Below are positions 1 to 38,876 of a stretch of DNA of 38,876 nt, in pieces. The position numbers and the translations under genes are program-made. This DNA is from Shigella phage CT02: the sequence record OP917825. One strand, given 5' to 3'. Below the pieces are notes generated by a model. It worked only from the letters and a program-made list of their open reading frames with translations, did no database searches and was not told the DNA's origin. The first letter of the stretch is position 1, and each line of letters opens with the position of its first letter.

Positions 1-429
1 GCAGCAACCTTCTTCTTGACTATGTGGGGTGGAATTCAGTGCTGGAAAACAGGATATGACGGTCAAAATCAAAACTTCGAGTTCACAAGGAACCCCGTGT
101 CCGATATCCGCCTCAAGAACATCACAGGTAAGGTAGACGGGGCAAAATGTCTCAATAGCATTGAGAGCATGAACTTCGTTGAGTTCACCTTTAAGCGCGA
201 TGCTAACAAGAAGGTTCGCCGTGGTGTTATTGCACAGGAAGTACAGAAGATTGACCCACAATACACTAGCCTGTCTGTCATGGAGGCCACCAACGAGACC
301 CCTCGTATGGAGACCTTACAGTTAGACCTCACGCCCATGACTCTGGATGCCCTAGCAGCAATCAAAGAGTTGTCGAGTCAGGTCAAGGAACTAAAGGCTG
401 AACTTAAACAACTCAAGGAAGCTAAATAA
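1..429 (+). CDS. Tail fiber (gp17-like), C-terminal fragment; reading frame is open at window start. Contains an intramolecular-chaperone / peptidase S74-type self-cleaving domain from about nt 100
   Basis: Frame 1 is open from nt 1 to the stop at 427-429. Motif NPVSDIRLKNI (S74-type Ser-Lys cleavage motif) followed by a strongly helical C-terminus (ALAAIKELSSQVKELKAELKQLKEAK). Sits immediately upstream of holin gene 17.5, as gene 17 does in T7-like genomes. Confidence 0.7.
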   Translation, partial: AATFFLTMWGGIQCWKTGYDGQNQNFEFTRNPVSDIRLKNITGKVDGAKCLNSIESMNFVEFTFKRDANKKVRRGVIAQEVQKIDPQYTSLSVMEATNETPRMETLQLDLTPMTLDALAAIKELSSQVKELKAELKQLKEAK

Positions 430-469
430 CAAAGAGGCCACGGACGGCCTCGATAATAAGGAGGGCACA

Positions 470-673
470 ATGTTGTCATTGGACTTTAATAATGAGTTAG
501 TCAAGGCCGCGCCGATTGTTGGTACGGGGGTAGCTGATGGTGCCGCCCGCCTATTCTTCGGGTTGAGTCTTAATGAGTGGTTCTACGTTGCAGCTATCGC
601 CTACACAGTGGTTCAGATTGGTGCCAAGGTAGTCGATAAGATGATTGACTGGAAACGTGCAAATAAGGAGTAA
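470..673 (+). CDS. Class II holin (gp17.5)
   Basis: 67-aa ORF with RBS AAGGAGG upstream; near-identical from memory to T7 gp17.5 (MLSLDFNNEL...); hydrophobic core. Confidence 0.85.
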   Translation: MLSLDFNNELVKAAPIVGTGVADGAARLFFGLSLNEWFYVAAIAYTVVQIGAKVVDKMIDWKRANKE

Positions 674-676
674 CCT

Positions 677-943
677 ATGAGTGACAAGACTTTAATCAAG
701 CTGCTGGAGATGCTAGACACTGAGATGGCACAGCGTATGCTTGCTGACCTCCAGAGTGAGGAACGCCGAACGCCGCAGCTTTACAACGCAATCGGCAAAC
801 TGTTAGACCGCCATAAGTTCCAAATCAGTAAGCTGACCCCGGATGAGAACATCCTCGGTGGACTGGCGGCTGGTCTGGAAGACTACAACAAAGTGGTCGG
901 CCCTAATGGTCTGACTGACGATGAGACCATCACGCTACAGTAA
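677..943 (+). CDS. Terminase small subunit (gp18)
   Basis: 88-aa ORF; strong recalled similarity to T7 gp18 (MSDKTLIKLLEMLDTEMAQRML...); RBS AAGGAG. Confidence 0.85.
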   Translation: MSDKTLIKLLEMLDTEMAQRMLADLQSEERRTPQLYNAIGKLLDRHKFQISKLTPDENILGGLAAGLEDYNKVVGPNGLTDDETITLQ

Positions 944-949
944 GTGACA

Positions 950-988
950 TACTCAAGGTTCTCCACGCGGGGAGCCTTTATGGATGTT
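950..988 (+). promoter_or_regulatory. RNase III-type processing hairpin (R18.5-like)
   Basis: Member of a 6-copy family with conserved flanks ACTCAAGG...CCTTTATGRAT around an imperfect GC-rich stem. Confidence 0.4.
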
Positions 989-1029
989 ATTTGGTGCATC
1001 TATGTGAAATCTGAAAATTGATGGGAGGT

Positions 1030-1485
1030 GTTATGCTAAAACTTTTACGCAGCGCACTCCCTTGGGTACTCGCCGGGACACTCTTTATGGGTGGCTGGCA
1101 CTTAGGGTCAACCCATGAGAGAGCGAACTGGAAGGAGGTAATCCAAAATGAATACATTGCGAAAACAAAAGCAACCGCAGCAACTCAGGCAGAGGTCAGT
1201 CGGGTATCCCGTGAGTACCAAGAAGAGATTGCAGCCATTGAAGGCAGCACTGATAGGATGCTTAATGACCTGCGTAGTAATAATAAGCGGCTGTCAGTCC
1301 GCATCAAAACCCTTACCGGACTACCAGAAGATAACGGTAGATTCGAGTTTAATGGTCGAGCCGAACTACACGAGTCAGATGCTAAGCGTATTATCGGAAT
1401 AACCCAAGCTGCTGATGCTCACGTAAGAGCGCTCCAGCGTACTATTAAGGAGATGCAGAATGAGCGACACCCAAGCAAACCGTAA
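1030..1485 (+). CDS. i-spanin, Rz-like (gp18.5)
   Basis: ORF 1018..1485; preferred start ATG 1030 directly after RBS GGAGGTG (1021-1027); N-terminal TM segment; resembles T7 gp18.5. Confidence 0.75.
1148..1402 (+). CDS. o-spanin, Rz1-like lipoprotein (gp18.7), embedded in gene 18.5 in the +1 frame
   Basis: 84-aa ORF fully inside 18.5; lipobox-like IISGC; RBS AAGGAGG upstream; resembles T7 gp18.7. Confidence 0.7.
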   Translation: MNTLRKQKQPQQLRQRSVGYPVSTKKRLQPLKAALIGCLMTCVVIISGCQSASKPLPDYQKITVDSSLMVEPNYTSQMLSVLSE

Positions 1486-3223
1486 TGCGCTAATCATTGC
1501 GCAGCTTAAGGGTGACTTCGTGGCCTTCCTGTTTGTATTGTGGAAGGCTTTGGCTCTCCCGCCGCCGACTAAGTGTCAGATTGATATGGCCCGGTGTCTG
1601 GCTAACGGAGACAACAAGAAGTTTATCCTACAGGCTTTCCGTGGTATCGGTAAGTCATTCATCACCTGTGCGTTCGTTGTGTGGACGTTATGGCGTGACC
1701 CTCAGTTGAAGATACTGATCGTCTCTGCATCCAAAGAACGTGCGGACGCTAACTCCATCTTCATCAAGAACATCATTGACCTGCTGCCCTTCTTGGCTGA
1801 GCTAAAGCCTCGCCCCGGTCAGCGCGACTCTGTGATTAGTTTCGATGTTGGCCCTGCCAAGCCTGACCACTCTCCGTCTGTGAAGTCGGTGGGTATCACT
1901 GGTCAGTTGACTGGTAGCCGTGCTGATATCATCATAGCGGATGACGTTGAGATTCCGTCTAACTCCGCAACTCAAGGTGCCCGTGAGAAGCTGTGGACTC
2001 TGGTGCAGGAATTTGCTGCGCTTCTGAAACCACTGCCGACTTCTCGCGTTATCTACCTTGGCACGCCTCAAACCGAAATGACCTTGTACAAGGAACTCGA
2101 AGATAACCGTGGGTACACCACAATCATCTGGCCTGCGCTCTATCCACGTAGCCGTGAGGAAGACTTGTACTATGGCGACCGTCTGGCCCCGATGCTCCGC
2201 GAAGAGTTCAACGATGGGTTCGAGATGCTCCAAGGTCAACCGACTGACCCCGTGCGCTTCGATATGGAAGACCTGCGTGAGCGTGAGTTGGAATACGGTA
2301 AGGCTGGCTTCACTTTGCAGTTCATGCTAAACCCGAACCTGAGTGATGCCGAGAAGTACCCCTTACGCCTCCGTGACGCTATCGTGTGCGGTCTGGACTT
2401 CGAGAAAGCCCCAATGCATTACCAGTGGCTTCCGAACCGTCAGAATCGCAATGAAGAGCTTCCTAACGTGGGACTTAAGGGTGATGATATTCATAGCTAT
2501 CATTCGTGCAGCCAGAACACTGGACAGTACCAGCAACGCATCCTCGTGATTGACCCTAGTGGTCGAGGTAAGGATGAGACTGGTTACGCAGTGTTGTTCA
2601 CCCTGAATGGCTACATCTATCTGATGGAAGCTGGCGGGTTCCGCGATGGTTATTCCGATAAGACCCTTGAGTCCCTCGCTAAGAAAGCGAAGCAGTGGAA
2701 GGTTCAGACAGTGGTCTTCGAGAGTAACTTCGGGGATGGTATGTTTGGTAAGGTATTCAGCCCTGTGCTCCTGAAACACCATGCAGCGCAACTTGAAGAG
2801 ATTCGTGCTCGTGGTATGAAGGAACTACGCATTTGTGATACGCTGGAGCCTGTACTCTCTACGCACCGCCTTGTGATTCGTGACGAGGTGATTCGTGAGG
2901 ACTACCAGACTGCCCGTGACGCTGATGGCAAGCATGACGTTCGCTATTCACTGTTCTACCAGTTGACCCGTATGGCTCGTGAGAAGGGCGCTGTGGCCCA
3001 TGACGACCGACTTGATGCATTAGCATTGGGTGTAGAGTTCTTACGCTCTACGATGGAACTGGACGCCGTGAAGGTGGAAGCTGAGGTGCTTGAGGCGTTC
3101 TTAGAGGAACACATGGAGCACCCAATCCATTCGGCTGGTCATGTAGTTACCTCTATGGTTGACGGTATGGAACTCTATTGGGAGGATGACGATGTGAATA
3201 GCAACAGGTTCATTGACTGGTAG
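1460..3223 (+). CDS. Terminase large subunit (gp19)
   Basis: 587-aa ORF; length and sequence consistent with T7/T3 gp19; RBS AAGGAG. Confidence 0.9.
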
Positions 3224-3303
3224 TTATGCATATTGAGTGCATAAGGAATCATTGAGACCACGGATGGTCACTTTAAGAAACTCCTTAAGAATCAATGAGT
3301 TTG

Positions 3304-3326
3304 CATTAACCCTCACTAAAGGGAGA
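3304..3326 (+). promoter_or_regulatory. T3-class phage RNAP promoter (phiOR position)
   Basis: CATTAACCCTCACTAAAGGGAGA matches the T3 promoter consensus; lies between genes 19 and 19.5. Confidence 0.7.
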
Positions 3327-3467
3327 GAGGGGACTTAAAGCTACTATATAGGTTAGTCATTCAGATTATGCAATGACCCTTTATGCACTTTAAGTCTACC
3401 TCTATGATTGGTGATATTATCATTGTATAATCACCCTACCTTAGAGCAACTGAAAGGAGGTGGCTCA

Positions 3468-3617
3468 ATGTTACGCTTGCTGATTGCCCTGCTGCGTCAT
3501 AGAGTCACTTGGCGATTTCTTCTGGTACTTACTGCTACCCTTGGGTACGCAGGTCTTACTGACCACCTCGGTCAACTGGAAGTGGCCTTTTGCTCTATAC
3601 TCTCTTGTGGGGATTAA
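3468..3617 (+). CDS. gp19.5-like small protein
   Basis: Internal ATG of ORF 3408..3617 preceded by RBS GGAGG; product MLRLLIALLRHRVTWRFL... resembles T7 gp19.5 (49 aa). Confidence 0.6.
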   Translation: MLRLLIALLRHRVTWRFLLVLTATLGYAGLTDHLGQLEVAFCSILSCGD

Positions 3618-3874
3618 ATTATTGTTGATGACCGACAAGCGGCTCTGAGGGATTCGTAGGTATAGTTTCACTACACCAACTCATCCCTGTAGAGTCAACC
3701 CTAAAGGTTATACCTAAAGATGCCCTGTAGTTCGTAATGGTCTTACAGGGTCTTCTGGTGTCTCCTAGATATCCCTTCGGGATGCGCCTGTGGTCTCACC
3801 TATGGTGTGGCCTTACCTAAAGTGGTTGCCTAAAGAGACCCTTTAAGAATTTACCACAAAAATCTGAATGGGTA

Positions 3875-4105
3875 TCTCACAGTTCAAGAACCCAAAGTAC
3901 CCCCATAGCCCTCCTAAAGCCACCTAAAGCCAGCCCTACCCCTCTGGTTTAACCTTCGGTTAACCTTGGGTATCTCCTCAAGTGGCCTATAGGATAGCCT
4001 AGAGTGTTGCCTAAAGTCAATACCTAAAGAGGTGGATGGCTTAAAGAGGCCTTAAAGAGTGTCCTAGTGTACCAGTTCGATAGTACATCTCTATGTGTCC
4101 CTATC
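3875..4105 (+). other. Inferred genome left end and terminal repeat (concatemer junction); exact repeat length not determinable from a single copy
   Basis: TCTCACAGTTCAAGAACCCAAAGTACCCCCATAG at 3875 resembles the T7/T3 genome left-end sequence; followed by CCTAAAG repeats and the phiOL promoter, as at the T7 left end. Confidence 0.4.
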
Positions 4106-4116
4106 TGTTAGTCATT

Positions 4117-4199
4117 CCTAAAGTAAACCTAAAGCCACTACCTAAAGACCAGACCTAAAGCCACCACCTAAAGACCAGACCTAAAGCCACCACCTAAAG
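4117..4199 (+). repeat. CCTAAAG heptamer array including a perfect 26-bp tandem duplication (4141..4166 and 4167..4192)
   Basis: Direct reading: CCTAAAGACCAGACCTAAAGCCACCA occurs twice in tandem; further CCTAAAG copies at 3700-3720, 3826-3845, 3905-3930, 4005-4060. Confidence 0.8.
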
Positions 4200-4287
4200 A
4201 GTGGAGCTATCTTAAAGACAACCAGACCGATAGACCCACTGTTAACCTGTAGTCTGTCCTGTAGTTTCCTATAACATCCAACGTTGT

Positions 4288-4310
4288 CTATTACCCTCAC
4301 TAAAGGGAAT
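4288..4310 (+). promoter_or_regulatory. T3-class phage RNAP promoter (phiOL position)
   Basis: TATTACCCTCACTAAAGGGAAT, a one-base-shorter variant of the consensus, upstream of the early region. Confidence 0.55.
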
Positions 4311-4363
4311 GAGGGATACTTAAAGAGGGAATAAAAGATTTAATAAAAGATTTAAATTAATGG

Positions 4364-4393
4364 TTGACTTTGAGTAACCCTTAAGGCTATTAT
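4364..4393 (+). promoter_or_regulatory. Sigma70 early promoter (A1-like)
   Basis: -35 TTGACT (4364-4369), 18-bp spacer, -10 TATTAT (4388-4393); position matches T7 A1. Confidence 0.55.
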
Positions 4394-4492
4394 TCATCTC
4401 GTCAACGGGACAACGGCCTTAAAGCCACTCCCTGAGATACCGGAGTCAACCGGATAAGTAGACAGCCTGATAAGTCATACGAAAAACAGGCA

Positions 4493-4522
4493 TTGACAAC
4501 ATGAAGTAACATGCAGTAAGAT
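4493..4522 (+). promoter_or_regulatory. Sigma70 early promoter (A2-like)
   Basis: -35 TTGACA, 18-bp spacer ACATGAAGTAACATGCAG, -10 TAAGAT; near-identical to recalled T7 A2. Confidence 0.7.
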
Positions 4523-4600
4523 GCACAGCGTCAACCGGACGGATACGGTGTCTTCTAGGTGACTTAAGCGCACCACGGCACATAAAGCGAGACAAAATGG

Positions 4601-4629
4601 TTGACAACATGAAGTAAGCACGGTACGAT
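4601..4629 (+). promoter_or_regulatory. Sigma70 early promoter (A3-like)
   Basis: -35 TTGACA, 17-bp spacer, -10 TACGAT; near-identical to recalled T7 A3. Confidence 0.7.
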
Positions 4630-4841
4630 GTGCCACATGAAAGACACCGAGTGTCGTAGGTGTAAAAACGCGACATAGTGGATAGATGGCGAAAGCACAA
4701 GCGACCACGATAATAAAGAGCTTGTCGCACTTATAACGCAAGTGACGGCTAACACTGAAATAGCCTCGGCTCGACGAAACTGTAGCCTAAAGTTCTTTAA
4801 CAATCTGGATAATAGCTCTTGAGTGTACCGTATAAGCGAAT

Positions 4842-4877
4842 AACTCAAGGTCGCACTGAAAGCGTGGCCTTTATGAT
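4842..4877 (+). promoter_or_regulatory. RNase III-type processing hairpin (R0.3-like)
   Basis: AACTCAAGGTCGCACTGAAAGCGTGGCCTTTATGAT; conserved flank family, upstream of gene 0.3. Confidence 0.55.
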
Positions 4878-4913
4878 ATTCACTTAACACGAACTAACAT
4901 GAGGTAATACCAA

Positions 4914-5372
4914 ATGATTTTCACTAAAGAGCCTGTCAACGTCTTCTATGTACTGGTGTCAGCATTCCGTTCTAACCTTGATGATGAGGTGAACATGAGC
5001 CGCCACCGCCACATGGTGAGCGAATTACGTGCCGCACCGGGTATCTACGGCGAGCTTGAGTCTACCGATTTGACCGGGTGCTATCGTGAGAGTATCGCAC
5101 TGGCTCCAACCGAGGAAAAGACCATGCGTGTACTCTGCAAGAACAAAGAGCAGGCACTACAGGTAGCTCGCTTAGCTTGCAATGAGTATGAGCAAGATTG
5201 CGTACTGGTATACAAATCACAGACTCACACAGCGGGATTGGTGTACGCTAAAGGTATCGACGGGTATAAGGCTGAACGTCTGCCGGGTAGCTTCCAAGAG
5301 GTTCCCAAAAGCGCACCGCTTCAAGGCTGCTTCACGATTGATGAGTTCGGACGCCGCTGGCAGGTGGCCTAA
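4914..5372 (+). CDS. S-adenosylmethionine-degrading enzyme (T3 gp0.3-type SAMase), anti-restriction
   Basis: 152-aa ORF; sequence and length match recalled T3 gp0.3; RBS GAGGT; first gene after the early promoters. Confidence 0.85.
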   Translation: MIFTKEPVNVFYVLVSAFRSNLDDEVNMSRHRHMVSELRAAPGIYGELESTDLTGCYRESIALAPTEEKTMRVLCKNKEQALQVARLACNEYEQDCVLVYKSQTHTAGLVYAKGIDGYKAERLPGSFQEVPKSAPLQGCFTIDEFGRRWQVA

Positions 5373-5373
5373 T

Positions 5374-5529
5374 ATGAATCGCTATTACATCAACGTACCG
5401 GGCTGGGGCGGGTCTCTGACCTGCTACGGATACAACGAACGGGACGCACGGAAACGCTTTAGAGAACAACACGGCTTCGGAAGGCTTCCTAATGGGACGC
5501 GCCTATGGCTGGACGCCCGTGATTGGTAA
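5374..5529 (+). CDS. Small early protein, unknown function (51 aa)
   Basis: Internal ATG of ORF 5182..5529 placed right after the 0.3 stop; the longer version would overlap 0.3 out of frame. Weak RBS. Confidence 0.4.
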   Translation: MNRYYINVPGWGGSLTCYGYNERDARKRFREQHGFGRLPNGTRLWLDARDW

Positions 5530-5534
5530 GTGTT

Positions 5535-5572
5535 AAACTCAAGGTCGCACCGAGTGTGTGGCCTTTATGATT
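5535..5572 (+). promoter_or_regulatory. RNase III-type processing hairpin
   Basis: AACTCAAGGTCGCACCGAGTGTGTGGCCTTTATGAT; conserved flank family. Confidence 0.55.
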
Positions 5573-5593
5573 ATCACTTATAGGACTAACACC

Positions 5594-5794
5594 ATGAGTA
5601 AACTACTGGCAACATCTAAAATAGAAGGCCAATGCACTGTAACACTGCGTGAGTATTACCACGGGTCAATGGGAAGCACCTACGTTGTGCGATACGGTAA
5701 ACAGGTCACACATTGGGTAAACCCGATTTTAGCACAAGAGGATTATCAAGCCTGTGTGATACACCAAGCAACATGTGCGGGCTGGAATGATTGA
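5594..5794 (+). CDS. Small early protein, unknown function (66 aa)
   Basis: ATG 5594 is the first start downstream of the RNase III hairpin; the ORF-track start 5558 lies inside the hairpin. Confidence 0.45.
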   Translation: MSKLLATSKIEGQCTVTLREYYHGSMGSTYVVRYGKQVTHWVNPILAQEDYQACVIHQATCAGWND

Positions 5795-5813
5795 CATTAC
5801 AGGAGGATTGGCA

Positions 5814-5972
5814 ATGGTTATCTTTATCGCTGTCGCACTCTTTGCGGTCGCTGGCTGGTACTCTGAGTCACGCAAGGCCGCTCGCTATCATCACAAGATG
5901 GTTAAACTCATGGAACACTTGGACGCAGAAGGGCGAGGCCGCGAGGCTATCGAGCTGGTGAAACACGCATGA
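5814..5972 (+). CDS. Small early membrane protein, unknown function (52 aa)
   Basis: ATG 5814 preceded by RBS AGGAGG (5801-5806); N-terminal hydrophobic helix VIFIAVALFAVAGW. Confidence 0.45.
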   Translation: MVIFIAVALFAVAGWYSESRKAARYHHKMVKLMEHLDAEGRGREAIELVKHA

Positions 5973-6166
5973 TGATTCTCTTTATCGCACTGGTCTATCT
6001 GTGCATCGCAATGTACTTTATGCGAGACTTTAAGCGCGGTCTGGCAGTACACAAGGCAACGCTGAGTTACTTTAAGTGGGGATTCATCCCACGGTTTACG
6101 GTTCGTGAACGTAACGGACGCTTTAAGGCCAATAAGGTTGGTATCTTCTACATCGCAACTCACTGA
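5969..6166 (+). CDS. Small early membrane protein, unknown function (65 aa)
   Basis: ATGATG start overlaps the preceding stop; N-terminal hydrophobic helix ILFIALVYLCIAMYF. Confidence 0.45.
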   Translation: MMILFIALVYLCIAMYFMRDFKRGLAVHKATLSYFKWGFIPRFTVRERNGRFKANKVGIFYIATH

Positions 6167-6187
6167 TTAACTTAAGGACACACTGAA

Positions 6188-7297
6188 ATGACTTTCACCG
6201 AAGCACAAGCCGCACTCGAAGCTATCCGCAACCTGCCGATTGAGCGCCTGAACGAACGCCAGCCCATGCTGGTGGCTCTTGCGGCTGCTATCGTGAACGA
6301 TGAGACTCAAGACGGCGAACTGACGCAGGCCAAGGGCAATTGGGGTCTGGAGTCTATGGACTACTGGCAGACACTGGCTGAGCGTATGCGTGATGTTGGA
6401 TTTGTACGCTTGGGTAACGGTCACTTTAGCGCAGCATATGAGCACGCATTGTTACCGGGCAAGGTCATCAAGGTAGGCTTTAAGAAAGAGGACTCAGGCG
6501 CAGCCTATGCAGCCTTCTGCCGTATGAACCAAGGCCGGGAAGGTATCCCTACGGTGTACGACATTCAGCGTCATGCTGGTTGTTACACGGTGGTTCTTGA
6601 TTATCTGAACCCGCTTAACGACTGGTGCTACGGTGAGAGTGACAAGGTGCGTCACCACTTCAAAGCCGCACGGGAAATCATTGAGGAGGATTGCTTCGAT
6701 ACCGCCGAAGAGTACCCAATAAGTGACGGGTTCATTGAGACCTGCAAGGATATCCGCAAGTTCTTCTTAGGCATCGCATCGTTCGATTGTCACAGCGGTA
6801 ACATGATGAAAGACCAGATGGGACGCCTGATTATCACAGACCCGGTATCATTCAGCGCAGACGACAAGTTAAAGCCGGGTGAGTTCCACTGTGACCCGGA
6901 TGAACTCATCGCTGAGATTGAGGCGCTGAGAGCGCAGGAAGCGATTGACCGCTGTAAGGCACGCAAGGCACGCCGTGACCCTAAAGGAGACTTTCAGGTA
7001 GCACGAAAGGCCCGTGCCAAATGGCGCAGAAAGGCCTCTAAGCGTGAAAAGCGCAACGCTAAGGTACTCGCTAAGATGCGCATGGATGCCAACGAGCAAC
7101 GCAGGGCCGAGCCTAGGGCACGTATGTTGTGGGGGGATAAGCACTGGCGCAACGCTTGGGTGCAGCACATGAATGTTGACTTCGCACGGCTCGAACTGTT
7201 AGCAGCCGCACAGATGGCACAGATAGACCACAAGGCTATCGTATGGGGCAAGCCGTTACACATAGACGCATACCTTGACAAGAGACTGCAAGGCTGA
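6188..7297 (+). CDS. Ser/Thr protein kinase with host-shutoff domain (gp0.7)
   Basis: 369-aa ORF; conserved block GNGHFSAAY...KVIKVGFKKEDSGAAYAAFCRM...QRHAGCYTVVLD matches recalled T7 gp0.7; basic Arg/Lys-rich C-terminus. Confidence 0.9.
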   Translation: MTFTEAQAALEAIRNLPIERLNERQPMLVALAAAIVNDETQDGELTQAKGNWGLESMDYWQTLAERMRDVGFVRLGNGHFSAAYEHALLPGKVIKVGFKKEDSGAAYAAFCRMNQGREGIPTVYDIQRHAGCYTVVLDYLNPLNDWCYGESDKVRHHFKAAREIIEEDCFDTAEEYPISDGFIETCKDIRKFFLGIASFDCHSGNMMKDQMGRLIITDPVSFSADDKLKPGEFHCDPDELIAEIEALRAQEAIDRCKARKARRDPKGDFQVARKARAKWRRKASKREKRNAKVLAKMRMDANEQRRAEPRARMLWGDKHWRNAWVQHMNVDFARLELLAAAQMAQIDHKAIVWGKPLHIDAYLDKRLQG

Positions 7298-10614: not shown

Positions 10615-10889
10615 TGATGGGACGTCTCTATAGCGGCAACCTGAACGATTACAAAGATGCGGTAGCGCGTCTACAGGAAGACCATGACGTGACCGTGAAG
10701 ATGGAGTCATTCAGCTATGAAAACCCAGCGAAGATGTGCAGGTCATCCGGTGAGGTTCTCCGTGTGTTCACACGCTCCGGGCATCTGGTGGCATCCAGAA
10801 CCTTCGAGCACAGCGACAGCGATGTACAAATCAACGCGCAGACTGCATGGCTCCGCAAGGTTCACAGCGATTTGAAACACTGGAAGTAA
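10614..10889 (+). CDS. gp1.2-like protein (host dGTPase inhibitor family)
   Basis: ORF 10605..10889; preferred start ATG 10614 (MMGRLYSGNL...) overlapping the 1.1 stop; C-terminus ...DLKHWK resembles T7 gp1.2. Confidence 0.65.
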   Translation: MMGRLYSGNLNDYKDAVARLQEDHDVTVKMESFSYENPAKMCRSSGEVLRVFTRSGHLVASRTFEHSDSDVQINAQTAWLRKVHSDLKHWK

Positions 10890-10909
10890 TAACCCTCACT
10901 AACAGGAGA
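10887..10909 (+). promoter_or_regulatory. T3-class phage RNAP promoter (phi1.3)
   Basis: AATAACCCTCACTAACAGGAGAA; its +1 region supplies the AGGAG RBS of the next ORF. Confidence 0.7.
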
Positions 10910-10915
10910 AACGAA

Positions 10916-11332
10916 ATGAGAAACATCGAACGGTTCAACGCAAAGACTGAACCTTGCGGTGACTGTCTACGTTGGACTGGTCGAATCCAGCCTAACGGTT
11001 ACGGACAGTTTCGCCTCGAAGGTAAAACACAATACGCACATCGAGCAGCTTACAAGCTGTTTATCGGTGAACTGGACAATAAAGATACAGTCCTTCACTC
11101 GTGCGACAACAGGTGGTGTGTGAACCCTGAGCATTTGACCAAGGGAACGCAGGCCGATAACCTGAAAGACATGGCGATAAAGGGTAGACACCACGCCATT
11201 AAGATTCCGAACGATGCCATTGAGGGCATCCGCAAAGACCCTCGCTCTTCCACTGCGATAGCGGCTGAGTGGGGAGTCCACCCAACAACCATCCAGAAGA
11301 TTAAGCGAAATATCAACAGGAGATTCGTATGA
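10916..11332 (+). CDS. HNH endonuclease (homing-endonuclease-like), 138 aa
   Basis: Motif HSCDNRWCVNPEHLTKGTQADN (HNH with conserved His/Asn) plus upstream CGDC; start ATG 10916 after AGGAG; ORF-track start 10847 overlaps gene 1.2. Confidence 0.75.
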   Translation: MRNIERFNAKTEPCGDCLRWTGRIQPNGYGQFRLEGKTQYAHRAAYKLFIGELDNKDTVLHSCDNRWCVNPEHLTKGTQADNLKDMAIKGRHHAIKIPNDAIEGIRKDPRSSTAIAAEWGVHPTTIQKIKRNINRRFV

Positions 11333-14379: not shown

Positions 14380-14856
14380 ATGGAACTTAAAGAGAAACTA
14401 AAGGCTTACAGCGAAGTTTCTCATAACGGGTGCTGGGAGTGGCAACGCTACCGGATGCCCTGTGGTTACGGTAGGATTAGACACGGAGGCCGCATGGAAC
14501 TAACGCATCGTCTATCCTACCTAGCATTCAACGGGGATATACCTGAGGGTCTTGTTGTTCGCCATAAGTGTGACAACAAATGCTGCGTTAACCCTGAGCA
14601 CCTTACGCTAGGTACTCAAAAGGACAACGTTAAGGATGCAATAGACCGTGGTCAATTCGTCTACAGGGAGAACCCGAAAGGTGCAAAGCACCACATGGCT
14701 AAACTTAATGAGAAACAGGTTATGGAGGTTTACAACTCGACACAGACCCAAAGCAGCCTAGCAGAGACCTATGGTGTATCTCGACAATTAATCAGCGCGA
14801 TTAAGAGAGGTAAACTATGGCAGCACGTTACGCAGCACGTGGAGTTAAACGAGTAG
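14380..14856 (+). CDS. HNH endonuclease (homing-endonuclease-like), 158 aa; paralog of 10916..11332
   Basis: Motif HKCDNKCCVNPEHLTLGTQKDN; shares the YG.R..G....HR..Y and CDN..CVNPEHLT.GTQ.DN blocks with the first HNH ORF. Confidence 0.75.
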   Translation: MELKEKLKAYSEVSHNGCWEWQRYRMPCGYGRIRHGGRMELTHRLSYLAFNGDIPEGLVVRHKCDNKCCVNPEHLTLGTQKDNVKDAIDRGQFVYRENPKGAKHHMAKLNEKQVMEVYNSTQTQSSLAETYGVSRQLISAIKRGKLWQHVTQHVELNE

Positions 14857-15272
14857 GATCATATAGAAGCGGCTTAGAGCAGAAGAACATGGAGATGCTG
14901 GAACGTAAGGGAATCAAGGGACAGTATGAGATGTGGTCTATTCCCTATGTTATCCCTGCATCGAACCACAAGTACACACCAGACATAATCCTACCCAACG
15001 GAATCATTATTGAGACCAAGGGTCTATGGGACAGTGAAGACCGTAAGAAACACTTACTGATTCGTGAGCAGATGCCTGAGTTGGATATTCGTTTGGTATT
15101 CTCTTCGAGCCGCTCTAAGTTATACAAAGGGTCTCCAACCAGTTACGGTGAGTGGGCCGAAAAGCATGGTATTCTATTTGCTGACAAGCTGATTCCTGTG
15201 GAGTGGCTTAAAGAACCTAAGAAGGAGATACCGTGGGATAAACTAATTGCAAAGAAAGGAGTTAAGAAATAA
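14817..15272 (+). CDS. Endonuclease I, Holliday-junction resolvase (gene 3)
   Basis: 151-aa ORF; VPYVIPASNH.YTPD...ETKGLW...DRKKHLLIREQ.PELDIR.VFSSSR.KLYKGSPTSYGE matches recalled T7 gp3; RBS AGAGAGG. Confidence 0.9.
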   Translation: MAARYAARGVKRVGSYRSGLEQKNMEMLERKGIKGQYEMWSIPYVIPASNHKYTPDIILPNGIIIETKGLWDSEDRKKHLLIREQMPELDIRLVFSSSRSKLYKGSPTSYGEWAEKHGILFADKLIPVEWLKEPKKEIPWDKLIAKKGVKK

Positions 15273-25851: not shown

Positions 25852-26892
25852 ATGGCTAACAATCAAGGCGGACAGCAAATTGGTACTAATCAGGGTAAGG
25901 GTCAGTCCGCAGCGGACAAATTGGCGCTGTTCCTGAAAGTGTTCGGCGGTGAAGTCCTGACGGCTTTCGCTCGCACCTCCGTGACCATGCCTCGTCACAT
26001 GCTGCGCTCTATTGCTTCTGGTAAGTCCGCACAGTTCCCTGTGATTGGTCGCACCAAAGCTGCTTACCTGAAACCGGGTGAGAACCTCGATGACAAACGT
26101 AAGGATATCAAACACACCGAGAAGGTAATCCACATTGATGGCCTGCTGACTGCGGACGTTCTGATTTACGACATTGAGGACGCGATGAACCACTACGACG
26201 TTCGCGCTGAGTACACCGCACAGTTGGGTGAATCTCTGGCGATGGCGGCTGACGGTGCTGTACTGGCTGAACTGGCTGGTCTGGTTAACCTGCCTGACGC
26301 ATCCAATGAGAACATCGAGGGTCTCGGTAAGCCTACCGTACTGACTCTGGTTAAGCCGAAAGCTGGCGACCTGACTGACCCGGTTGAGCTGGGTAAAGCA
26401 ATTATTGCTCAGTTAACTATCGCGCGTGCGGCGCTGACCAAGAACTACGTTCCGGCTGCTGACCGTACTTTCTACACCACTCCTGATAACTACTCCGCGA
26501 TTCTGGCTGCTCTGATGCCGAACGCTGCAAACTATCAGGCACTGCTTGACCCTGAGCGTGGTACTATCCGTAACGTGATGGGCTTCGAAGTGGTTGAGGT
26601 TCCGCACCTGACCGCTGGTGGCGCTGGTGATACCCGTGAGGATGCCCCGGCTGACCAGAAGCACGCTTTCCCAGCGACTTCCAGCACTACCGTTAAGGTT
26701 GCTCTGGATAACGTTGTGGGCCTGTTCCAGCACCGCTCTGCGGTTGGTACGGTCAAGCTGAAAGACTTGGCTCTGGAGCGCGCTCGTCGTGCGAACTATC
26801 AGGCTGACCAGATTATCGCTAAGTACGCGATGGGTCACGGCGGTCTGCGTCCAGAAGCTGCTGGTGCAATCGTGATGCCTGCTGCAAAGTAA
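25852..26892 (+). CDS. Major capsid protein 10A
   Basis: 346-aa ORF; RBS AAGGAGA; followed by the Tphi-like terminator. Confidence 0.95.
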   Translation: MANNQGGQQIGTNQGKGQSAADKLALFLKVFGGEVLTAFARTSVTMPRHMLRSIASGKSAQFPVIGRTKAAYLKPGENLDDKRKDIKHTEKVIHIDGLLTADVLIYDIEDAMNHYDVRAEYTAQLGESLAMAADGAVLAELAGLVNLPDASNENIEGLGKPTVLTLVKPKAGDLTDPVELGKAIIAQLTIARAALTKNYVPAADRTFYTTPDNYSAILAALMPNAANYQALLDPERGTIRNVMGFEVVEVPHLTAGGAGDTREDAPADQKHAFPATSSTTVKVALDNVVGLFQHRSAVGTVKLKDLALERARRANYQADQIIAKYAMGHGGLRPEAAGAIVMPAAK

Positions 26893-26999
26893 TCAGCGGT
26901 GCGGACGAAGTGGCAAGCTCTAACGATGAGTTAACGCCTGCACAGAAAGCCGCTATCACGAGGGCGCGTAACAAGGCTCTCAAAGAGGCCACTGAGTAA
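26892..26999 (+). CDS. Putative -1 frameshift extension giving minor capsid protein 10B
   Basis: Open -1 frame continues 35 codons past the 10A stop (VISGADEVASSNDELTPAQKAAITRARNKALKEATE); 10A ends A AAG UAA, a possible shifty stop. Confidence 0.4.
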   Translation: MSGADEVASSNDELTPAQKAAITRARNKALKEATE

Positions 27000-27008
27000 A
27001 CCTAGCAA

Positions 27009-33438: not shown

Positions 33439-36400
33439 ATGAGCTACGATAAGAACAAACCTAGCGAGTTCGACGGGTTATTTCAAAAAGCGGCAGACAA
33501 ACATGGGGTCTCCTATGACCTGCTTCGTAAATTGGCATTCAACGAATCCAGCTTCAATCCAAAGGCCAAATCTCCAACTGGCCCGAAGGGTCTCATGCAG
33601 TTCACCAAGGGTACAGCCACTGCGCTGGGACTCAAGGTCACTGATGCAGACGATGATGACCGTTACAACCCGGAGTTGGCTGTGGATGCAGCCGCTCGTC
33701 ACCTGAGTGACCTCATTCGTAAATACGATGGGGATGAGCTTAAGGCAGCCCTAGCGTACAACCAAGGCGAGGGCAGAAATGGTGCCCCTCAGATGCAGGC
33801 CTACGACAAAGGCGATTGGGCTTCAATCTCTGAGGAAGGTCGTAACTATATGCGTAACCTGATGGACGTAGCTAACAGTCCTCGCAAGGGGGACTTGGAG
33901 GCGTTCGGCGGCATCACCCCAAAGGCTAAGGGCATTCCATCGGGGGATGCATTTGCGGGAATCGGGAAGAAGCAGACGGTAGGAACTGACCTGCCGGAGT
34001 CAACTGGATTCAAAGTGGAAGGTAAAGAGCAGAAAGCACCTAACGTGCCATATGCTAAGGACTTTTGGGAAAAGACTGGAACAACACTGGACGAGTTTAA
34101 TTCTCGTTCAGCCTTCTTCGGAATCGGAGATGCCACAAGTGCAGAACTTCACAACTCCGTATTGGGTGTGGCTTTTCGTGCCGCTCGTAGTGATGACGGT
34201 TTTGATTTATTCAAGGACACCATTACGCCGACTCGCTGGAACAGCCATACGTGGACTCCAGAAGAGTTAGAGCGTATCCGTAAGGAAGTGAAGAACCCCG
34301 CGTACATCCACGTAGTCACTGGAGGCTCTCCTGAGAATCTGGACGCCCTCATTAAGATGGCGAATGACAACTACGAGATGGACGCGCGGTCTGCCGATGC
34401 TGGTGTTGGTGCCAAACTTACTGCTGGTATCGTCGGTGCTGGTGTAGACCCGCTTAGTTACGTACCGCTAGTAGGCGTAGCCGGGAAGGGTCTCAAGGTG
34501 GTTAACAAGGCTTTCATTGTTGGTACTCAAAGTGCTGGCCTCGCTGTTGCCTCTGAGGGTATCCGTACATCAATCGCTGGTGGAGAAGCCCACTATGCTG
34601 ATGCTGCTTTAGGTGGTCTCATGTTCGGTGCTGGTATGAGCGCAATCAGTGACGCTATCGCCGCTGGTGTTCGCCGTTCCCGTGGTACTGAGGTTGTTAA
34701 TGACTTCGCTCCTATGGCACACCGCTTGGAAGCCCGTGAGACCGCTATGAACTCTGGTGGTGAAGACCTGACCCGTATGCCTAGCGAGAACCGTGTGTTC
34801 GACCGTGAGCACGCTGGCGTTGAGTATTCACCTCTGGAGACAGAGCCGGGTGCCGTTGTGTTGCCTCAAGGTCAAATCCTTAGCGACACCAACCCGCTGA
34901 ACCCTCAGACTCTTAGCGAGTTCGAGGCGGTCAACCCTGAGCGTGCCGCTCGTGGTATCTCTTTGAGTGGTTTCACTGAGATTGGCTTGAAGACTCTCCG
35001 CTCTGAGAACCCGACTGTTCGCTCCATTGCGAGTGACCTTGTGCGTTCTCCAACAGGGATGGAATCAGGCTCTAATGGTAAGTTCGGTGCGACAGCTTCT
35101 GACATTAAGGAGCGACTCCACGCGAACAATCAGCGCACCTACAATCAGCTTTATGATGCTGTGCGTACTGCAATGAAAGACCCTGAGTTCTCCACAGGTG
35201 GTGCCACAATGAGCCGTAAGGAAATCCGACAGGAAATCTACAAGCGTGCAGCCTTGGCGATTGAGCGACCTGAGCTTCAAGCAAACCTGACAAAGGGTGA
35301 GCGGAACGTGATGAACATCCTCAAGCAGCACTTTGACCTCAAACGTGAAATCATGGAGAACCCGTCAATCTTCGGCAACACCAAGGCGGTCAGTATCTTC
35401 CCCGGCTCACGCCACAAGGGAACCTACGTGCCAAACGTGTACGACCGCGCTATCAAGATTGAGATGGTTAAACGCTACGGTAATGATGGCTTACAGCGAG
35501 CAATCGCGGAGTCGTGGTTGACGTCTTATCGTGCTCGTCCAGAAGTCAAGGCGAGGGTCGATGAGTACCTGATGGAACTTAACGGTCTCAAATCCGTGCA
35601 GGAAGTTACGCCTGAGATGGTGCAGAAGCACGCGATGGATAAGGCGTATGGTATTTCACACACTGACCAGTTCTCTGCCTCCTCTGTCATTGATGATAAA
35701 CTTGAGGGTCTGACGGGTATCGAGAACAACAACTTCTTGGAAGCCCGTAACATGTTCGACAGTGACATGGCGGTGACTCTCCCTGATGGTAACACGTTCT
35801 CTGTGAATGACCTGCGTACCTATGACATGGCTGACATTCTGCCTGCATATGACCGCCGAGTTGATGGGGATGTTGCAATCATGGGTGGTTCCGGTAAGAC
35901 TACCAAAGACCTGAAAGATGAAATCATGGCGCTGGATAAGCAGGCTGAGGGTAACGGCACACTGAAAGGTGAAGTGGAAGCCCTCAAGGACACCGTGAAG
36001 ATTCTGACTGGTCGTGCTCGTAGGAACCCGGAAGGCGCTTGGGGCATAGCCCTACGCTCCGTCAATGACCTTACGTTCTTCGCTAAGAACGCCTACATGG
36101 GTGCGCAGAACCTTACTGAAATCGCTGGTATGCTGGCTAAAGGTAACGTCTCTGCGATAACTCATGGCATCCCTGTGATTAACGATTGGGTCAACCGTGG
36201 TAAACCGCTTCGTGCCTCTGAGATTAAGGAGATACACGGGATGGTGTTCGGTAAGGAACTAGACCAACTAATCCGTCCGGGACGTGAAGACCACGTGCGC
36301 CGACTCCGGGAGTCTACGGACACCAGCGCTGCGGTTGCCAATGTGGTCGGTACGATTCGTTTCGGTACTCAAGAGTTGGCTGCACGCTCCCCTTGGACAA

Positions 36401-37401
36401 TGCTCCTGAACGGAACATCAAACTACATTCTTGATGCTGCCCGTCAGGGTGTGCTTGGGGATGTGGCTGGAGCGGCCCTTGCTGGGAAAGCCTCTAAGTT
36501 CGGTAAGGCAAACTACCTTAAGTCTGCCTCTATCAGCCCTGAGCAGTGGAATGGAATCAAGCAGTTGTTCAGAGACCATGCGACTCGTGGAGAAGACGGT
36601 AAGTTCACCATTCGTGACAAACAGGCTTTCGCTAACGACCCACGTTCAATGGACTTGTGGCGACTGGCTGACAAGGTGGCGGATGAGACTATACTGCGCC
36701 CTCACAAGGTTTCCTCACAGGACGCCAAAGCGTTCGGTGCAGGGGTTAAGATGGTGATGCAGTTTAAGAACTTCGTCATCAAGTCCCTTAACTCCCGGTT
36801 CGTCCGTAGCTTCTATGAGGCAACGAAGAACAACCGTGCGTTAGACCAAGCGTTGACTCATATCATCTCTTTGGGTCTAGCTGGTGGTTACTACGTTGGG
36901 CAGGCGCACCTTAAGGCTGCAAGTCTACAGGAGCACAAACGTAAGGAGTACCTTAAGAACGCGCTTGACCCTAAGATGATTGCTCATGCGTCAATCTCTC
37001 GTAGTTCACACTTAGGATCACCATTGAGTATCTACGACATGTTCGCTGGGATGGTTGGTAGCGATACCTATAAGTACACCCGCTCTACTGTACTCCCTAA
37101 AGAGTCCGAGAAGCGCGACCCTAACAAGGCAGTGACAGGTAGACAGGTGGCTTCAACCATCGCAGGTGCAATTGGTGAGCAGGTTCCGGGTTTAGGTTTT
37201 GTGGGTTCTGTGGGCGCAACAGCAATTAACGCCGCTTCCCTACTGTCTTCTCCAAACAAGGCTACCGCTCTGGAGTTCCGTACAGGACTCTTCAACACCT
37301 CTCGTGAGTTGATTCCTAATGACCCGCTATCGCAGCAACTCATTATGAAAATCTACGAGGCCAACGGTATCCGTATAAAGGAGACGCCTAAGAAACAATA
37401 A
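33439..37401 (+). CDS. Internal virion protein gp16 with N-terminal lytic transglycosylase domain
   Basis: 1320-aa ORF; N-terminal SLT-like motif (LMQFTKGTA..., AYNQGEG); RBS AAGGAGG. Confidence 0.9.
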   Translation: MSYDKNKPSEFDGLFQKAADKHGVSYDLLRKLAFNESSFNPKAKSPTGPKGLMQFTKGTATALGLKVTDADDDDRYNPELAVDAAARHLSDLIRKYDGDELKAALAYNQGEGRNGAPQMQAYDKGDWASISEEGRNYMRNLMDVANSPRKGDLEAFGGITPKAKGIPSGDAFAGIGKKQTVGTDLPESTGFKVEGKEQKAPNVPYAKDFWEKTGTTLDEFNSRSAFFGIGDATSAELHNSVLGVAFRAARSDDGFDLFKDTITPTRWNSHTWTPEELERIRKEVKNPAYIHVVTGGSPENLDALIKMANDNYEMDARSADAGVGAKLTAGIVGAGVDPLSYVPLVGVAGKGLKVVNKAFIVGTQSAGLAVASEGIRTSIAGGEAHYADAALGGLMFGAGMSAISDAIAAGVRRSRGTEVVNDFAPMAHRLEARETAMNSGGEDLTRMPSENRVFDREHAGVEYSPLETEPGAVVLPQGQILSDTNPLNPQTLSEFEAVNPERAARGISLSGFTEIGLKTLRSENPTVRSIASDLVRSPTGMESGSNGKFGATASDIKERLHANNQRTYNQLYDAVRTAMKDPEFSTGGATMSRKEIRQEIYKRAALAIERPELQANLTKGERNVMNILKQHFDLKREIMENPSIFGNTKAVSIFPGSRHKGTYVPNVYDRAIKIEMVKRYGNDGLQRAIAESWLTSYRARPEVKARVDEYLMELNGLKSVQEVTPEMVQKHAMDKAYGISHTDQFSASSVIDDKLEGLTGIENNNFLEARNMFDSDMAVTLPDGNTFSVNDLRTYDMADILPAYDRRVDGDVAIMGGSGKTTKDLKDEIMALDKQAEGNGTLKGEVEALKDTVKILTGRARRNPEGAWGIALRSVNDLTFFAKNAYMGAQNLTEIAGMLAKGNVSAITHGIPVINDWVNRGKPLRASEIKEIHGMVFGKELDQLIRPGREDHVRRLRESTDTSAAVANVVGTIRFGTQELAARSPWTMLLNGTSNYILDAARQGVLGDVAGAALAGKASKFGKANYLKSASISPEQWNGIKQLFRDHATRGEDGKFTIRDKQAFANDPRSMDLWRLADKVADETILRPHKVSSQDAKAFGAGVKMVMQFKNFVIKSLNSRFVRSFYEATKNNRALDQALTHIISLGLAGGYYVGQAHLKAASLQEHKRKEYLKNALDPKMIAHASISRSSHLGSPLSIYDMFAGMVGSDTYKYTRSTVLPKESEKRDPNKAVTGRQVASTIAGAIGEQVPGLGFVGSVGATAINAASLLSSPNKATALEFRTGLFNTSRELIPNDPLSQQLIMKIYEANGIRIKETPKKQ

Positions 37402-37419
37402 ACCCTCACTAAAGGGAGA
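37397..37419 (+). promoter_or_regulatory. T3-class phage RNAP promoter (phi17)
   Basis: AATAAACCCTCACTAAAGGGAGA overlapping the gene 16 stop. Confidence 0.7.
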
Positions 37420-37462: not shown

Positions 37463-38876
37463 AGGAGGTCACATGGCTACAACTATTAAGACCGTGATGA
37501 CTTACCCGCTGGATGGCTCCACTACGGACTTCAATATTCCGTTTGAGTATCTGGCTCGTAAGTTCGTCCGAGTGACACTTATCGGCGTTGACCGAAAGGA
37601 ACTCACCTTGAATCAAGACTATCGTTTTGCAACTAAGACCACAATCTCCACAACGAGAGCACTGGGGCCAGCGGACGGTTATAACATGATTGAAATCCGT
37701 CGATTCACCTCCGCTACCGATAGGCTGGTTGACTTCACCGATGGTTCAATCCTACGAGCATACGACTTGAACATCTCACAGGTGCAGACGCTACACGTTG
37801 CAGAAGAGGCTCGTGACTTAACGGCTGATACCATTGGTGTGAACAACGATGGCAACCTTGATGCTCGTGGTCGTCGTATCATAAACGTAGCTGATGGTGT
37901 TGACCTCGGTGATGTTATCACTTTAGGTCAAGTCACTCGGTGGAACGAATCGGCACTGACCTCAAAGAACGCCGCAAAAGTCTCTGAGACCAACGCAAGG
38001 GCTTCCGAGAACAATGCGAAAACCTCTGAGACCAACGCAAAGAACTCTGAGAACCTAGCGCACGATTGGGCTCAGAAGGCCGAGGACGCTCCGGTGGCTG
38101 GATCTGAGTATTCCGCTTATCATTATTCCCGTAAGGCATCAACTAGTTCTACTGCGGCTGCTTCGAGTGCTGCTGCAAGTCTGGCCTCTCAGAACGCTGC
38201 GAAGGTCTCCGAGGATAAAGCCAAGGTCTCAGAGCAAAACGCTAAGGCTTCTGAGGTTTCCGCTAAGGCTGATGCTGAGCGAGCAGAACGTGAGGCTGAT
38301 AAGCTGGGTAACATGAACAACCTAGCAGCAAACATTGAGAGCGCGTCCGTTGACCCAAACGTTGTAATCTTCAAGGGTCGAGTGGTGTCTCGTGGTGATA
38401 TAATGGCTGCGACAAACCTACGCGGAGAACCCGCTGGTGGTACATGGTGGGGTACTCAAAGCCTAGTGTCTGTCGTGGAGGTTAACGGTAGGAAGCGTAT
38501 GCAGACACAACTGTATGCTGAGGGAACCGCTGGTGTAGATGACCGTAAGACTACGATAGCGTCCTATGAGTATGATTCCAATGAGAGAATTACTCGCTCA
38601 TCATATGTACACCTAATGCACAACACCTCTCGATGGTGGTCTAGGCAACACGGTGCTCTCGGTTATCAGACTGGATGGGACGACCCTACAAATAGCCGAC
38701 AGGCTCCCTATTGGGTAGACGATGTGGTAAATAATAACGATGGATGGGTTCCTGCGCTGTCTGTTCACTCAAGCTCAACTGGAGGATACCCTATCAGGGC
38801 TACTCAGGGTATCATTTCGCGTGGCCCTAACACTTGGCCAGACTTTGGTGTTCGCTTGTGTGGCGATAGGGGTAAG
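37463..38876 (+). CDS. Tail fiber (gene 17), N-terminal part; runs off the window end
   Basis: ATG 37463 after RBS AAGGAGG; first ~150 aa resemble the recalled T3/T7 gp17 tail-attachment domain (NIPFEYLARKFV.VTLIGVDRK...RLVDFTDGSILRAYDLN); no stop before the window end. Confidence 0.9.
37965..38290 (+). repeat. Imperfect tandem repeats encoding the coiled-coil heptad shaft of the fiber
   Basis: TCTGAGACCAACGCAA at 37983 and 38025 (42-bp spacing); encoded repeats AKVSETNARASENNAKTSETNAKNSEN and AKVSEDKAKVSEQNAKASEVSAKA. Confidence 0.6.

Follow-up and report, generated by a model that had tools for sequence, protein, structure and literature searches.

Exchange of fiber modules is the main route of host change in T7-like phages. 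In the BASEL collection, the Teseptimavirus MeretOppenheim (Bas102) carries a T7-like fiber that ends, at its C-terminus, in an intramolecular chaperone (IMC), and modules made of a T5-like receptor-binding domain and an IMC have been dispersed over phage genera through horizontal transfer (PMC11990801). The fibers of T7 and T3 themselves use the LPS core as receptor (PMC11990801). In T5 pb1, the bond at which the chaperone is cut is Thr1263-Ser1264, the serine is activated by Lys1269, and the substitution S1264A blocks cleavage; the protein competes with the phage for adsorption once it has been cleaved but not in its uncleaved form, suggesting that cleavage exposes the receptor site (PMC4690869). 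In the T5-like phages DT57C and DT571/2, a divergent region of LtfA upstream of pfam13884 sets the O-antigen specificity and its transfer switches the host (PMC4728585).

T7-like phages with IMC-bearing and T5-like tips are therefore already known, and isolates with four-module fibers are present in GenBank. Here, we report the analysis of the tail fiber gene of Shigella phage CT02 (sequence record OP917825), in which such a fiber is combined with a Teetrevirus backbone and carries a receptor-binding sequence with no more than 44% identity to any public one; both the combination and the sequence are new. The whole stretch of DNA analysed, referred to as the window, is 38,876 nucleotides long. 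We consider it highly probable that its complete gene 17 encodes a 610-residue homotrimeric fiber which has kept the adaptor of its backbone, has acquired its shaft, tip and chaperone from elsewhere and binds a glycan through a cleaved tip.

Gene continuity and genomic context

The fiber reading frame runs from the ATG at 37473 to the last letter of the window, and 37473..38876 was read from the sequence as exactly 468 codons with 0 stops. Positions 1..429, in frame 1, encode a further 142 residues followed by TAA. Joined, the two parts give a product of 610 residues with an in-frame junction between residues 468 and 469. Over its whole length, this product aligns with the fiber of ESh3 (609 aa, 63% identity) and is collinear with the fibers of NJ2 (616 aa, 51%) and of JSS1 and CECAV_058 (both 623 aa, 49%). 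In the alignments with these four fibers, as well as with T5-like LtfA proteins, there is no indel at 468/469; for example, RLCGDRGK, followed across the junction by AATFFLTMWGG, pairs gap-free with RLRGDGQFSATYFFTMGGG. An overlap between the end and the start of the window was sought at 10-199 nt and none was found. The gap-free junction alignments and the lack of an end overlap together indicate that the window contains the complete genome in circularly permuted form, with 0 sequence missing.

Positions 37473..38876 and 1..429 thus form one complete gene 17, and the alternative that each window end has a gene of its own was rejected. An earlier model-made reading of the letters alone (the sequence-only reading) had correctly taken the fragment at 1..429 for the C-terminus of the same protein. 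Its assumption that sequence was missing between the window end and the window start did not hold, and the position at which it began the feature, 37463, is that of the Shine-Dalgarno sequence AAGGAGGT and not the gene start.

The ORF upstream of the fiber gene (33439-37401) is collinear with gp16 of phiYe-F10 (gene 16, internal virion protein D). The fiber gene is therefore flanked by gene 16 and the holin gene 17.5 and has its own phage promoter, as gene 17 does in T7 and T3. The window has 13 matches of the ACCCTCACTAAAGGGAGA type, where chance would give 0. The coordinates of the features are given in Table 1.

Table 1. Features of the fiber gene of phage CT02 and its immediate surroundings, in window positions
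Feature	Position	Strand	Remarks
T3-type phage RNA polymerase promoter, phi17 position	37402..37419	+	Upstream of the fiber gene; perfect match to ACCCTCACTAAAGGGAGA
Shine-Dalgarno sequence AAGGAGGT	37463..37470	+	3 nt before the ATG; read from the sequence
Fiber aa 1-164, gp17-type N-terminal tail-attachment domain	37473..37964	+	PF03906; phiYe-F10 homology
Fiber aa 165-282, Ser/Ala/Asn-rich heptad shaft	37965..38318	+	Presumed coiled coil; ESh3/WW2-type
Fiber aa 283-468, Trp-rich receptor-binding domain (first part)	38319..38876	+	Runs to the window end
Fiber aa 469-501, receptor-binding domain (last part)	1..99	+	In frame from 38876
Fiber aa 502-610 and stop codon, Peptidase_S74 intramolecular chaperone	100..429	+	PF13884; TAA at 427-429
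Ser502, predicted scissile and catalytic residue	100-102
Lys507, predicted partner of Ser502	115-117
Hairpin, GAGGCC(A)CGGA(C)GGCCTC	434..451	.	Perfect 7-bp stem; just past the stop, within the swapped segment
Class II holin, T7 family, gene 17.5	470..673	+	PF10746, E=1.9e-35; conserved backbone

Sequence comparison places the backbone among the T3-like (Teetrevirus) podophages. Positions 13000-37400 are 96-97% identical, over 97-99% of their length, to Teetrevirus phages including phiYe-F10, HMGUsm2 and LL2. The whole genome is collinear with that of phiYe-F10, mostly at 94-97% identity, with lower values near 3900-6200 (early genes) and a few islands. The largest island covers 37964..38876 and 1..456, equivalent to fiber residues 165-610 and the 27 nt past the stop. 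Nucleotide homology to phiYe-F10 (95.7%) ends at 37963, in the codon of residue 164, and is back at position 457, 28 nt past the fiber stop, from where identity is 97%. With homology ending at 37963 and resuming at 457, all that lies beyond the tail-attachment domain has been cleanly replaced as a cassette. Very probably, then, as part of the explanation given above, the N-terminal 164 residues were inherited with the backbone and everything distal to them was acquired by recombination. A receptor-binding module swap had been proposed by the sequence-only reading, and the break in phiYe-F10 homology between 37963 and 457 agrees with this, the replacement being itself a mosaic.

Ancestry of the fiber modules

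The N-terminal module is that of a gp17-type fiber. The family PF03906 (Phage_T7_tail) matches residues 1-155 with E=1.1e-59 (201 bits, against a Pfam cut-off of 25.2), in keeping with the earlier suggestion that the first ~150 residues are gp17-like, and the domain also matches the solved T7 gp17 N-termini 7boz, 8e4g and 8dsp (E=1e-73 to 1e-85). Over residues 1-164, identity is 91% to phiYe-F10, 82% to ESh3, 78% to NJ2, 76% to CECAV_058, 74% to JSS1 and 73% to T3 gp17.

In the shaft (residues 165-282), the closest relative is ESh3 with 86% amino acid identity, followed by phiYe-F10 and NJ2 (38% each), JSS1 (30%) and CECAV_058 (29%); the DNA of this segment shares 91.2% identity with Shigella phage ESh3 and 90.4% with Yersinia phage WW2. 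The Ser/Ala/Asn-rich heptad repeats noticed in the sequence-only reading were found as two blocks with a period of seven residues. Both follow the pattern (A)K-x-S-E-x-N, the first at residues 168-195 (AKVSETN / ARASENN / AKTSETN / AKNSENL) and the second at residues 244-278 (KVSEDKA / KVSEQNA / KASEVSA / KADAERA / EREADKL). The composition of the shaft (26% Ala, 15% Ser and 10% Asn) agrees with this description. The shaft aligns weakly with those of T7 and T3, up to a conserved A(D/E)RAEREADKL motif.

Identities in the receptor-binding domain (residues 283-501) are 44% to NJ2, 38% to ESh3, 37% to CECAV_058, 36% to JSS1 and 33% to LtfA. Residues 286-501 contain 4.6% Trp, 3.7% Tyr and 11% Gly, so the distal region had rightly been called Trp/Tyr-rich as far as the tip is concerned; the last 109 residues of the protein, which that description had left unrecognised, are a Peptidase_S74 chaperone (PF13884). 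In the chaperone (residues 502-610), the order of relatives changes again, with 67% identity to both JSS1 and CECAV_058, 62% to ESh3, 41% to NJ2 and 28% to phiYe-F10. Nucleotide similarity to phage records returns at window position 156 (residue 520) at 71-73%, and the last 113 nt of the gene (317-429) are 93% identical to JSS1.

Since the best relative differs from module to module, the gene is a mosaic of four ancestries, in which no two of the distal modules (shaft, receptor-binding domain and chaperone) have their closest relative in common. The breakpoints coincide with conserved motifs, namely the end of the adaptor (~residue 164), EREADKLGNMN (residues 272-282) and the start of the chaperone.

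Relatives of the receptor-binding domain

No nucleotide match to the receptor-binding domain was found among 50,697 phage records. A tblastn search with residues 286-501 returned 151 phage records, all with less than 60% identity, including four Berlinvirus and Teseptimavirus fibers and many L-shaped fiber proteins of Demerecviridae (T5-like), with dozens of records from Epseptimavirus and Tequintavirus; the best protein identities were 42-44% (NJ2 and P0007). A HMMER scan of 1.84 billion representatives detected 28 proteins at E<=1e-3, the best being 44% (NJ2 type) and 41% (ESh3 type) identical, which corresponds to a family of about 28 clusters at 50% identity among these representatives. 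Among ~15 billion public proteins, the nearest relative of residues 283-501 is only 44% identical.

Most of the other HMMER matches have only the second half of the domain in common, with a motif directly upstream of the chaperone that reads GW..(x)..NNDGWVP..S.STGGYPIRAT.G.IS.G..WP....GD. The first half (residues 286-385) is common to only a handful of fibers. By BLASTP, residues 320-606 match residues 708-996 of LtfA from the Epseptimavirus UTK0010 (39%, E=2e-62), and residues 299-606 match LtfA from the Tequintavirus KPP2018 (38%, E=2e-59). The relationship to UTK0010 LtfA is retained when the receptor-binding domain is compared without its chaperone (35%, E=1.5e-35). Among the studied relatives, only Epseptimavirus and Tequintavirus LtfA proteins align with the receptor-binding domain; DT57C LtfA and T5 pb1 align through the chaperone only.

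Close relatives of the domain were sought in IMG/VR, JGI metagenomes and 5,426 E. coli genomes and none was found, and a motif scan of the genomes of 185,579 species gave 0 relatives. The family profile matched only T5-like contigs of 108-120 kb in IMG/VR. A protein-database search with the receptor-binding domain alone returned 0 matches, which is weak evidence for the absence of near-identical proteins. No Pfam family matches residues 286-501, and a search for a solved homolog with the family sequence profile found none.

Judged by these searches, the receptor-binding domain belongs to a small family, in which its sequence is novel, and is homologous to the tips of T5-like LtfA proteins. With at most 44% identity and no close relative in the searches, it could target a receptor or a host clade for which no T7-like or T5-like fiber has been characterised. 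We regard it as possible, but no better than a tentative reading, that residues 283-501 represent a previously unsampled specificity type and conceivably a new fold variant. If so, they would constitute a new module for host-range engineering.

Chaperone and structure prediction

The family PF13884 (Peptidase_S74, 'chaperone of endosialidase') matches residues 502-555 with E=2.1e-11 (44.4 bits, against a Pfam cut-off of 22). The chaperone domain opens with S502-D-I-R-L-K507, and in a 25-sequence family alignment this SDxxLK motif is nearly invariant, with Ser, Asp and Lys at least 90% conserved.

Structure was predicted, as a monomer, for the receptor-binding domain and chaperone of P0007, a collinear NJ2-like proxy that is 42% identical to the CT02 protein. 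The pLDDT of the P0007 model was 43 with a 5-sequence alignment and 75.5 with 25 family sequences. Compared with the PDB, only the chaperone part of the proxy gave convincing matches, to solved IMC folds, which consist of a mixed alpha/beta domain and a C-terminal helix that enters the trimeric coiled coil, and the receptor-binding part gave generic beta-sheet matches only. A fold like that of the T5 pb1 'bullet' domain (4UW7/4UW8) is conceivable for the receptor-binding part. A distal structure prediction had been recommended by the sequence-only reading as the way to find the receptor-binding fold; on the proxy it recovered the chaperone but did not yield that fold. Against predicted viral structures, alignments of the whole P0007 model extended beyond 300 columns with fibers carrying S74 from T1-like, T5-like (DT57C LtfA), T7-like (ECA2) and T4-like (gp37) phages. 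The general class is clear from the model: the tip of a fiber, folded with the help of a chaperone at its C-terminus.

Discussion

The S-x4-K spacing, which is that of T5 pb1, and the near-invariance of these residues in the family lead us to propose chaperone-assisted folding, autocleavage and glycan binding for the CT02 fiber. The N-terminal 164 residues attach the fiber to the tail (gp11/gp12) and keep it compatible with that of Teetrevirus phages, and the C-terminal chaperone would nucleate the folding of the tip as a trimer. The Ser502/Lys507 dyad is predicted to cut the Val501-Ser502 bond and to free the 109-residue chaperone, leaving a mature fiber of ~501 residues; the C-terminal 109 residues would consequently be no part of the mature tip. 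The exposed, non-enzymatic tip would then bind a surface polysaccharide of the host, most likely LPS O-antigen or core, and thereby set the host range.

The nature of the receptor is the part of this proposal that is most open to another reading, since the assignment to O-antigen or glycan extrapolates from relatives that are 33-39% identical and the fibers of T7 and T3 bind the LPS core. The architecture could be the same and the tip could recognise a protein receptor or the LPS core in place of O-antigen. The precedent of the T7 and T3 fibers (PMC11990801) speaks for this, as does the divergence of the domain, which is 33-44% identical to any relative and whose closest ones (NJ2 and ESh3) have no mapped receptor. 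The functionally studied relatives, T5-like LtfA tips and T5 pb1, nevertheless bind O-antigen (PMC4690869, PMC4728585), and we consider a core or protein receptor possible but rather unlikely.

An assembly artefact, in which two co-occurring T7-like phages were joined into a chimeric contig through their conserved N-terminal domain and downstream region, is improbable. One outer breakpoint does coincide with the edge of the N-terminal domain, which T7-like fibers conserve, and the other falls just past the fiber stop, where homology to the backbone starts again; an assembler might switch templates at such sites, and the window is a circularised assembly. Both flanks, however, are 96-97% identical to phiYe-F10, so two compensating switches would be needed, and the ORF is intact and collinear with the fibers of the isolates ESh3, NJ2, JSS1 and CECAV_058. 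Even in a chimeric contig, the fiber cassette would exist in some phage.

Slightly less probable still is an enzymatic tailspike or depolymerase similar to the K1F endosialidase, with a distal region that degrades capsule or O-antigen. S74 chaperones occur on endosialidases, including that of K1F, the NJ2 homolog is annotated as 'tail spike protein', and several PDB matches to the N-terminal domain are depolymerases, although these share the adaptor only. The ~220 residues between shaft and chaperone are too few for a beta-helix or a sialidase catalytic domain, and with 0 catalytic Pfam families, as well as 0 significant matches of the proxy P0007 model to depolymerase folds, an enzymatic role through a catalytic beta-helix, beta-propeller or sialidase domain placed between adaptor and IMC is unlikely. 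The relatives, moreover, are T5-like LtfA fiber tips, which have been described as adhesins (PMC4728585).

An ordinary, merely divergent gp17, collinear with the T3/T7 fiber over its whole length, has next to no probability: identity to T3 reaches 73% in the N-terminal domain, the shaft is still weakly aligned and its closing motif A(D/E)RAEREADKL-x-N-x-N-x-LA is common to T3 and T7, but the BLASTP match to T3 gp17 (558 aa) is limited to residues 1-310 (54% overall, ~30% in the shaft), the phmmer match to T7 gp17 is limited to residues 1-315 with the last 300 residues unaligned, and the Peptidase_S74 domain present here is lacking in both. With no T3/T7 similarity past the shaft-end motif and no S74 domain in T3 or T7, T3 gp17 and the present protein are not collinear, and the divergence from T3 gp17 that the sequence-only reading had noted is upheld by full-length alignment, in which the match ends at residue 310.

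The preferred reading is therefore still that of a backbone-derived adaptor with an acquired shaft, tip and chaperone. The gene shows module exchange at a fine scale, with four modules of four ancestries within 1.83 kb, and the motifs at the breakpoints (adaptor end, EREADKLGNMN and chaperone start) could serve as splice points for engineering. The family of the receptor-binding domain links the fibers of virulent podophages with the side fibers of T5-like phages. Current understanding is unchanged by these results, which add one more, rather divergent, example.

Comparison with known systems

The closest systems are the fibers of ESh3 (URY10735, Teseptimavirus), Enterobacter phage NJ2 (WQY99548, Berlinvirus) and the Salmonella phages JSS1 and vB_CECAV_058 (both Berlinvirus), which have an identical four-module architecture in 609-623 residues. 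Each consists of a PF03906 adaptor, a heptad shaft, an LtfA-like receptor-binding domain and an S74 chaperone, and each is collinear with the CT02 fiber over its full length. The CT02 fiber differs from them in sequence, with 49-63% identity overall, 36-44% in the receptor-binding domain and no nucleotide similarity there, and in its genomic setting, as it sits on a Teetrevirus backbone whereas the four others sit on the backbones of other genera. The fiber of Bas102 is likened to it by published description.

With T3 and T7 gp17, the protein has in common the tail-attachment domain, the gene position between genes 16 and 17.5, a promoter of its own and a shaft that ends in AERAEREADKL. Unlike in T3 and T7, the C-terminal pyramid and tip domains are replaced, and there is no similarity after residues 310-315.

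The distal ~290 residues (receptor-binding domain and S74) are homologous to T5-like LtfA of UTK0010 and KPP2018 at 38-39% identity, and the N-terminal part of UTK0010 LtfA has similar SETNAK-type repeats. In phages of the UTK0010/KPP2018 type, a 1,027-residue LtfA is followed by an LtfB-like gene; LtfA differs from the CT02 fiber in its length of ~1,027 residues, in its different N-terminus on a siphovirus tail and in the LtfB branch. DT57C LtfA (PDB 8hqz_d) matches in sequence in the chaperone only. The IMCs of T5 pb1 (4UW7/4UW8), the K1F endosialidase (3GW6) and phi29 gp12 (3GUD) resemble that of CT02 in the S74 fold and in the S-x4-K dyad.

Genome ends and segments absent from phiYe-F10

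Both termini of the linear phiYe-F10 genome, the closest backbone relative, were mapped by whole-genome nucleotide comparison to a single site at 3875-4110, where the alignment rows 457-4110 and 3875-4916 have 236 bp in common. This site is the one collapsed copy of the direct terminal repeat of about 235 bp; it therefore marks the physical ends of the genome and makes the window a circularised assembly.

The same comparison found no phiYe-F10 nucleotide match for the interval at the gene 0.3 position that carries a T3-type S-adenosylmethionine lyase, which makes this anti-restriction gene a further swapped module besides the fiber. Two ORFs with HNH_3 homing-endonuclease domains lie within islands that phiYe-F10 lacks at the nucleotide level (10911-11325 and 14380-14896), the second being located directly upstream of endonuclease I. 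Where the major capsid gene ends (10A/10B region), a short segment was likewise without a match in the whole-genome nucleotide comparison, and both of its flanks are 96% identical to phiYe-F10.

Coordinates of features discussed in this section
Feature	Window position	Details
S-adenosylmethionine lyase, T3-type, gene 0.3 position	4914-5372	PF23780, E=8e-41
ORF with HNH_3 homing-endonuclease domain	10847-11332	E=5.7e-9
ORF with HNH_3 homing-endonuclease domain	14380-14856	E=3.9e-15
Endonuclease I (gene 3)	14817-15272	
Stretch at end of major capsid gene	26874-27007	
Receptor-binding domain, second half	38625-38876 + 1-99	fiber aa 385-501
Hairpin GAGGCCACGGACGGCCTC, perfect 7-bp stem	434-451	in imported segment, 5 nt past fiber stop codon

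Receptor-binding domain and downstream hairpin

In its second half, the receptor-binding domain has a conserved set of motifs (GW, NNDGWVP, STGGYPIRAT, G-IS-G, WP and GD). The set recurs in about 25 fiber clusters that are otherwise unrelated, and in every case it adjoins the SDxxLK cleavage site on the upstream side. This half may be a subdomain for chaperone docking, or a "folding sensor", instead of the specificity determinant, in which case the variable part would be aa 286-385. With the family alignment as query, the word-indexed protein search gave zero matches; it also missed P0007 (an NJ2-like homolog of the receptor-binding domain and chaperone) and P0008, though both were recovered by exhaustive search. 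Its negatives are weak evidence.

The hairpin that follows the fiber gene has no T-run on the plus strand and may stabilise an RNA 3' end or be a site of the RNase III type.

Comparison with the phiYe-F10 fiber

The phiYe-F10 fiber CDS in GenBank (AKQ06801, 549 aa) begins at an internal start; the locus, at 4558-6561 of our phiYe-F10 sequence L003, corresponds to KT008108.1 33557-35560. The frame is open further upstream to an ATG, giving a 647-aa protein beginning MATTIKTVMTYPLDG. This extended N-terminus resembles the start of the fiber in the window, and the phiYe-F10 C-terminus is also an S74-like domain (SDRRLK).
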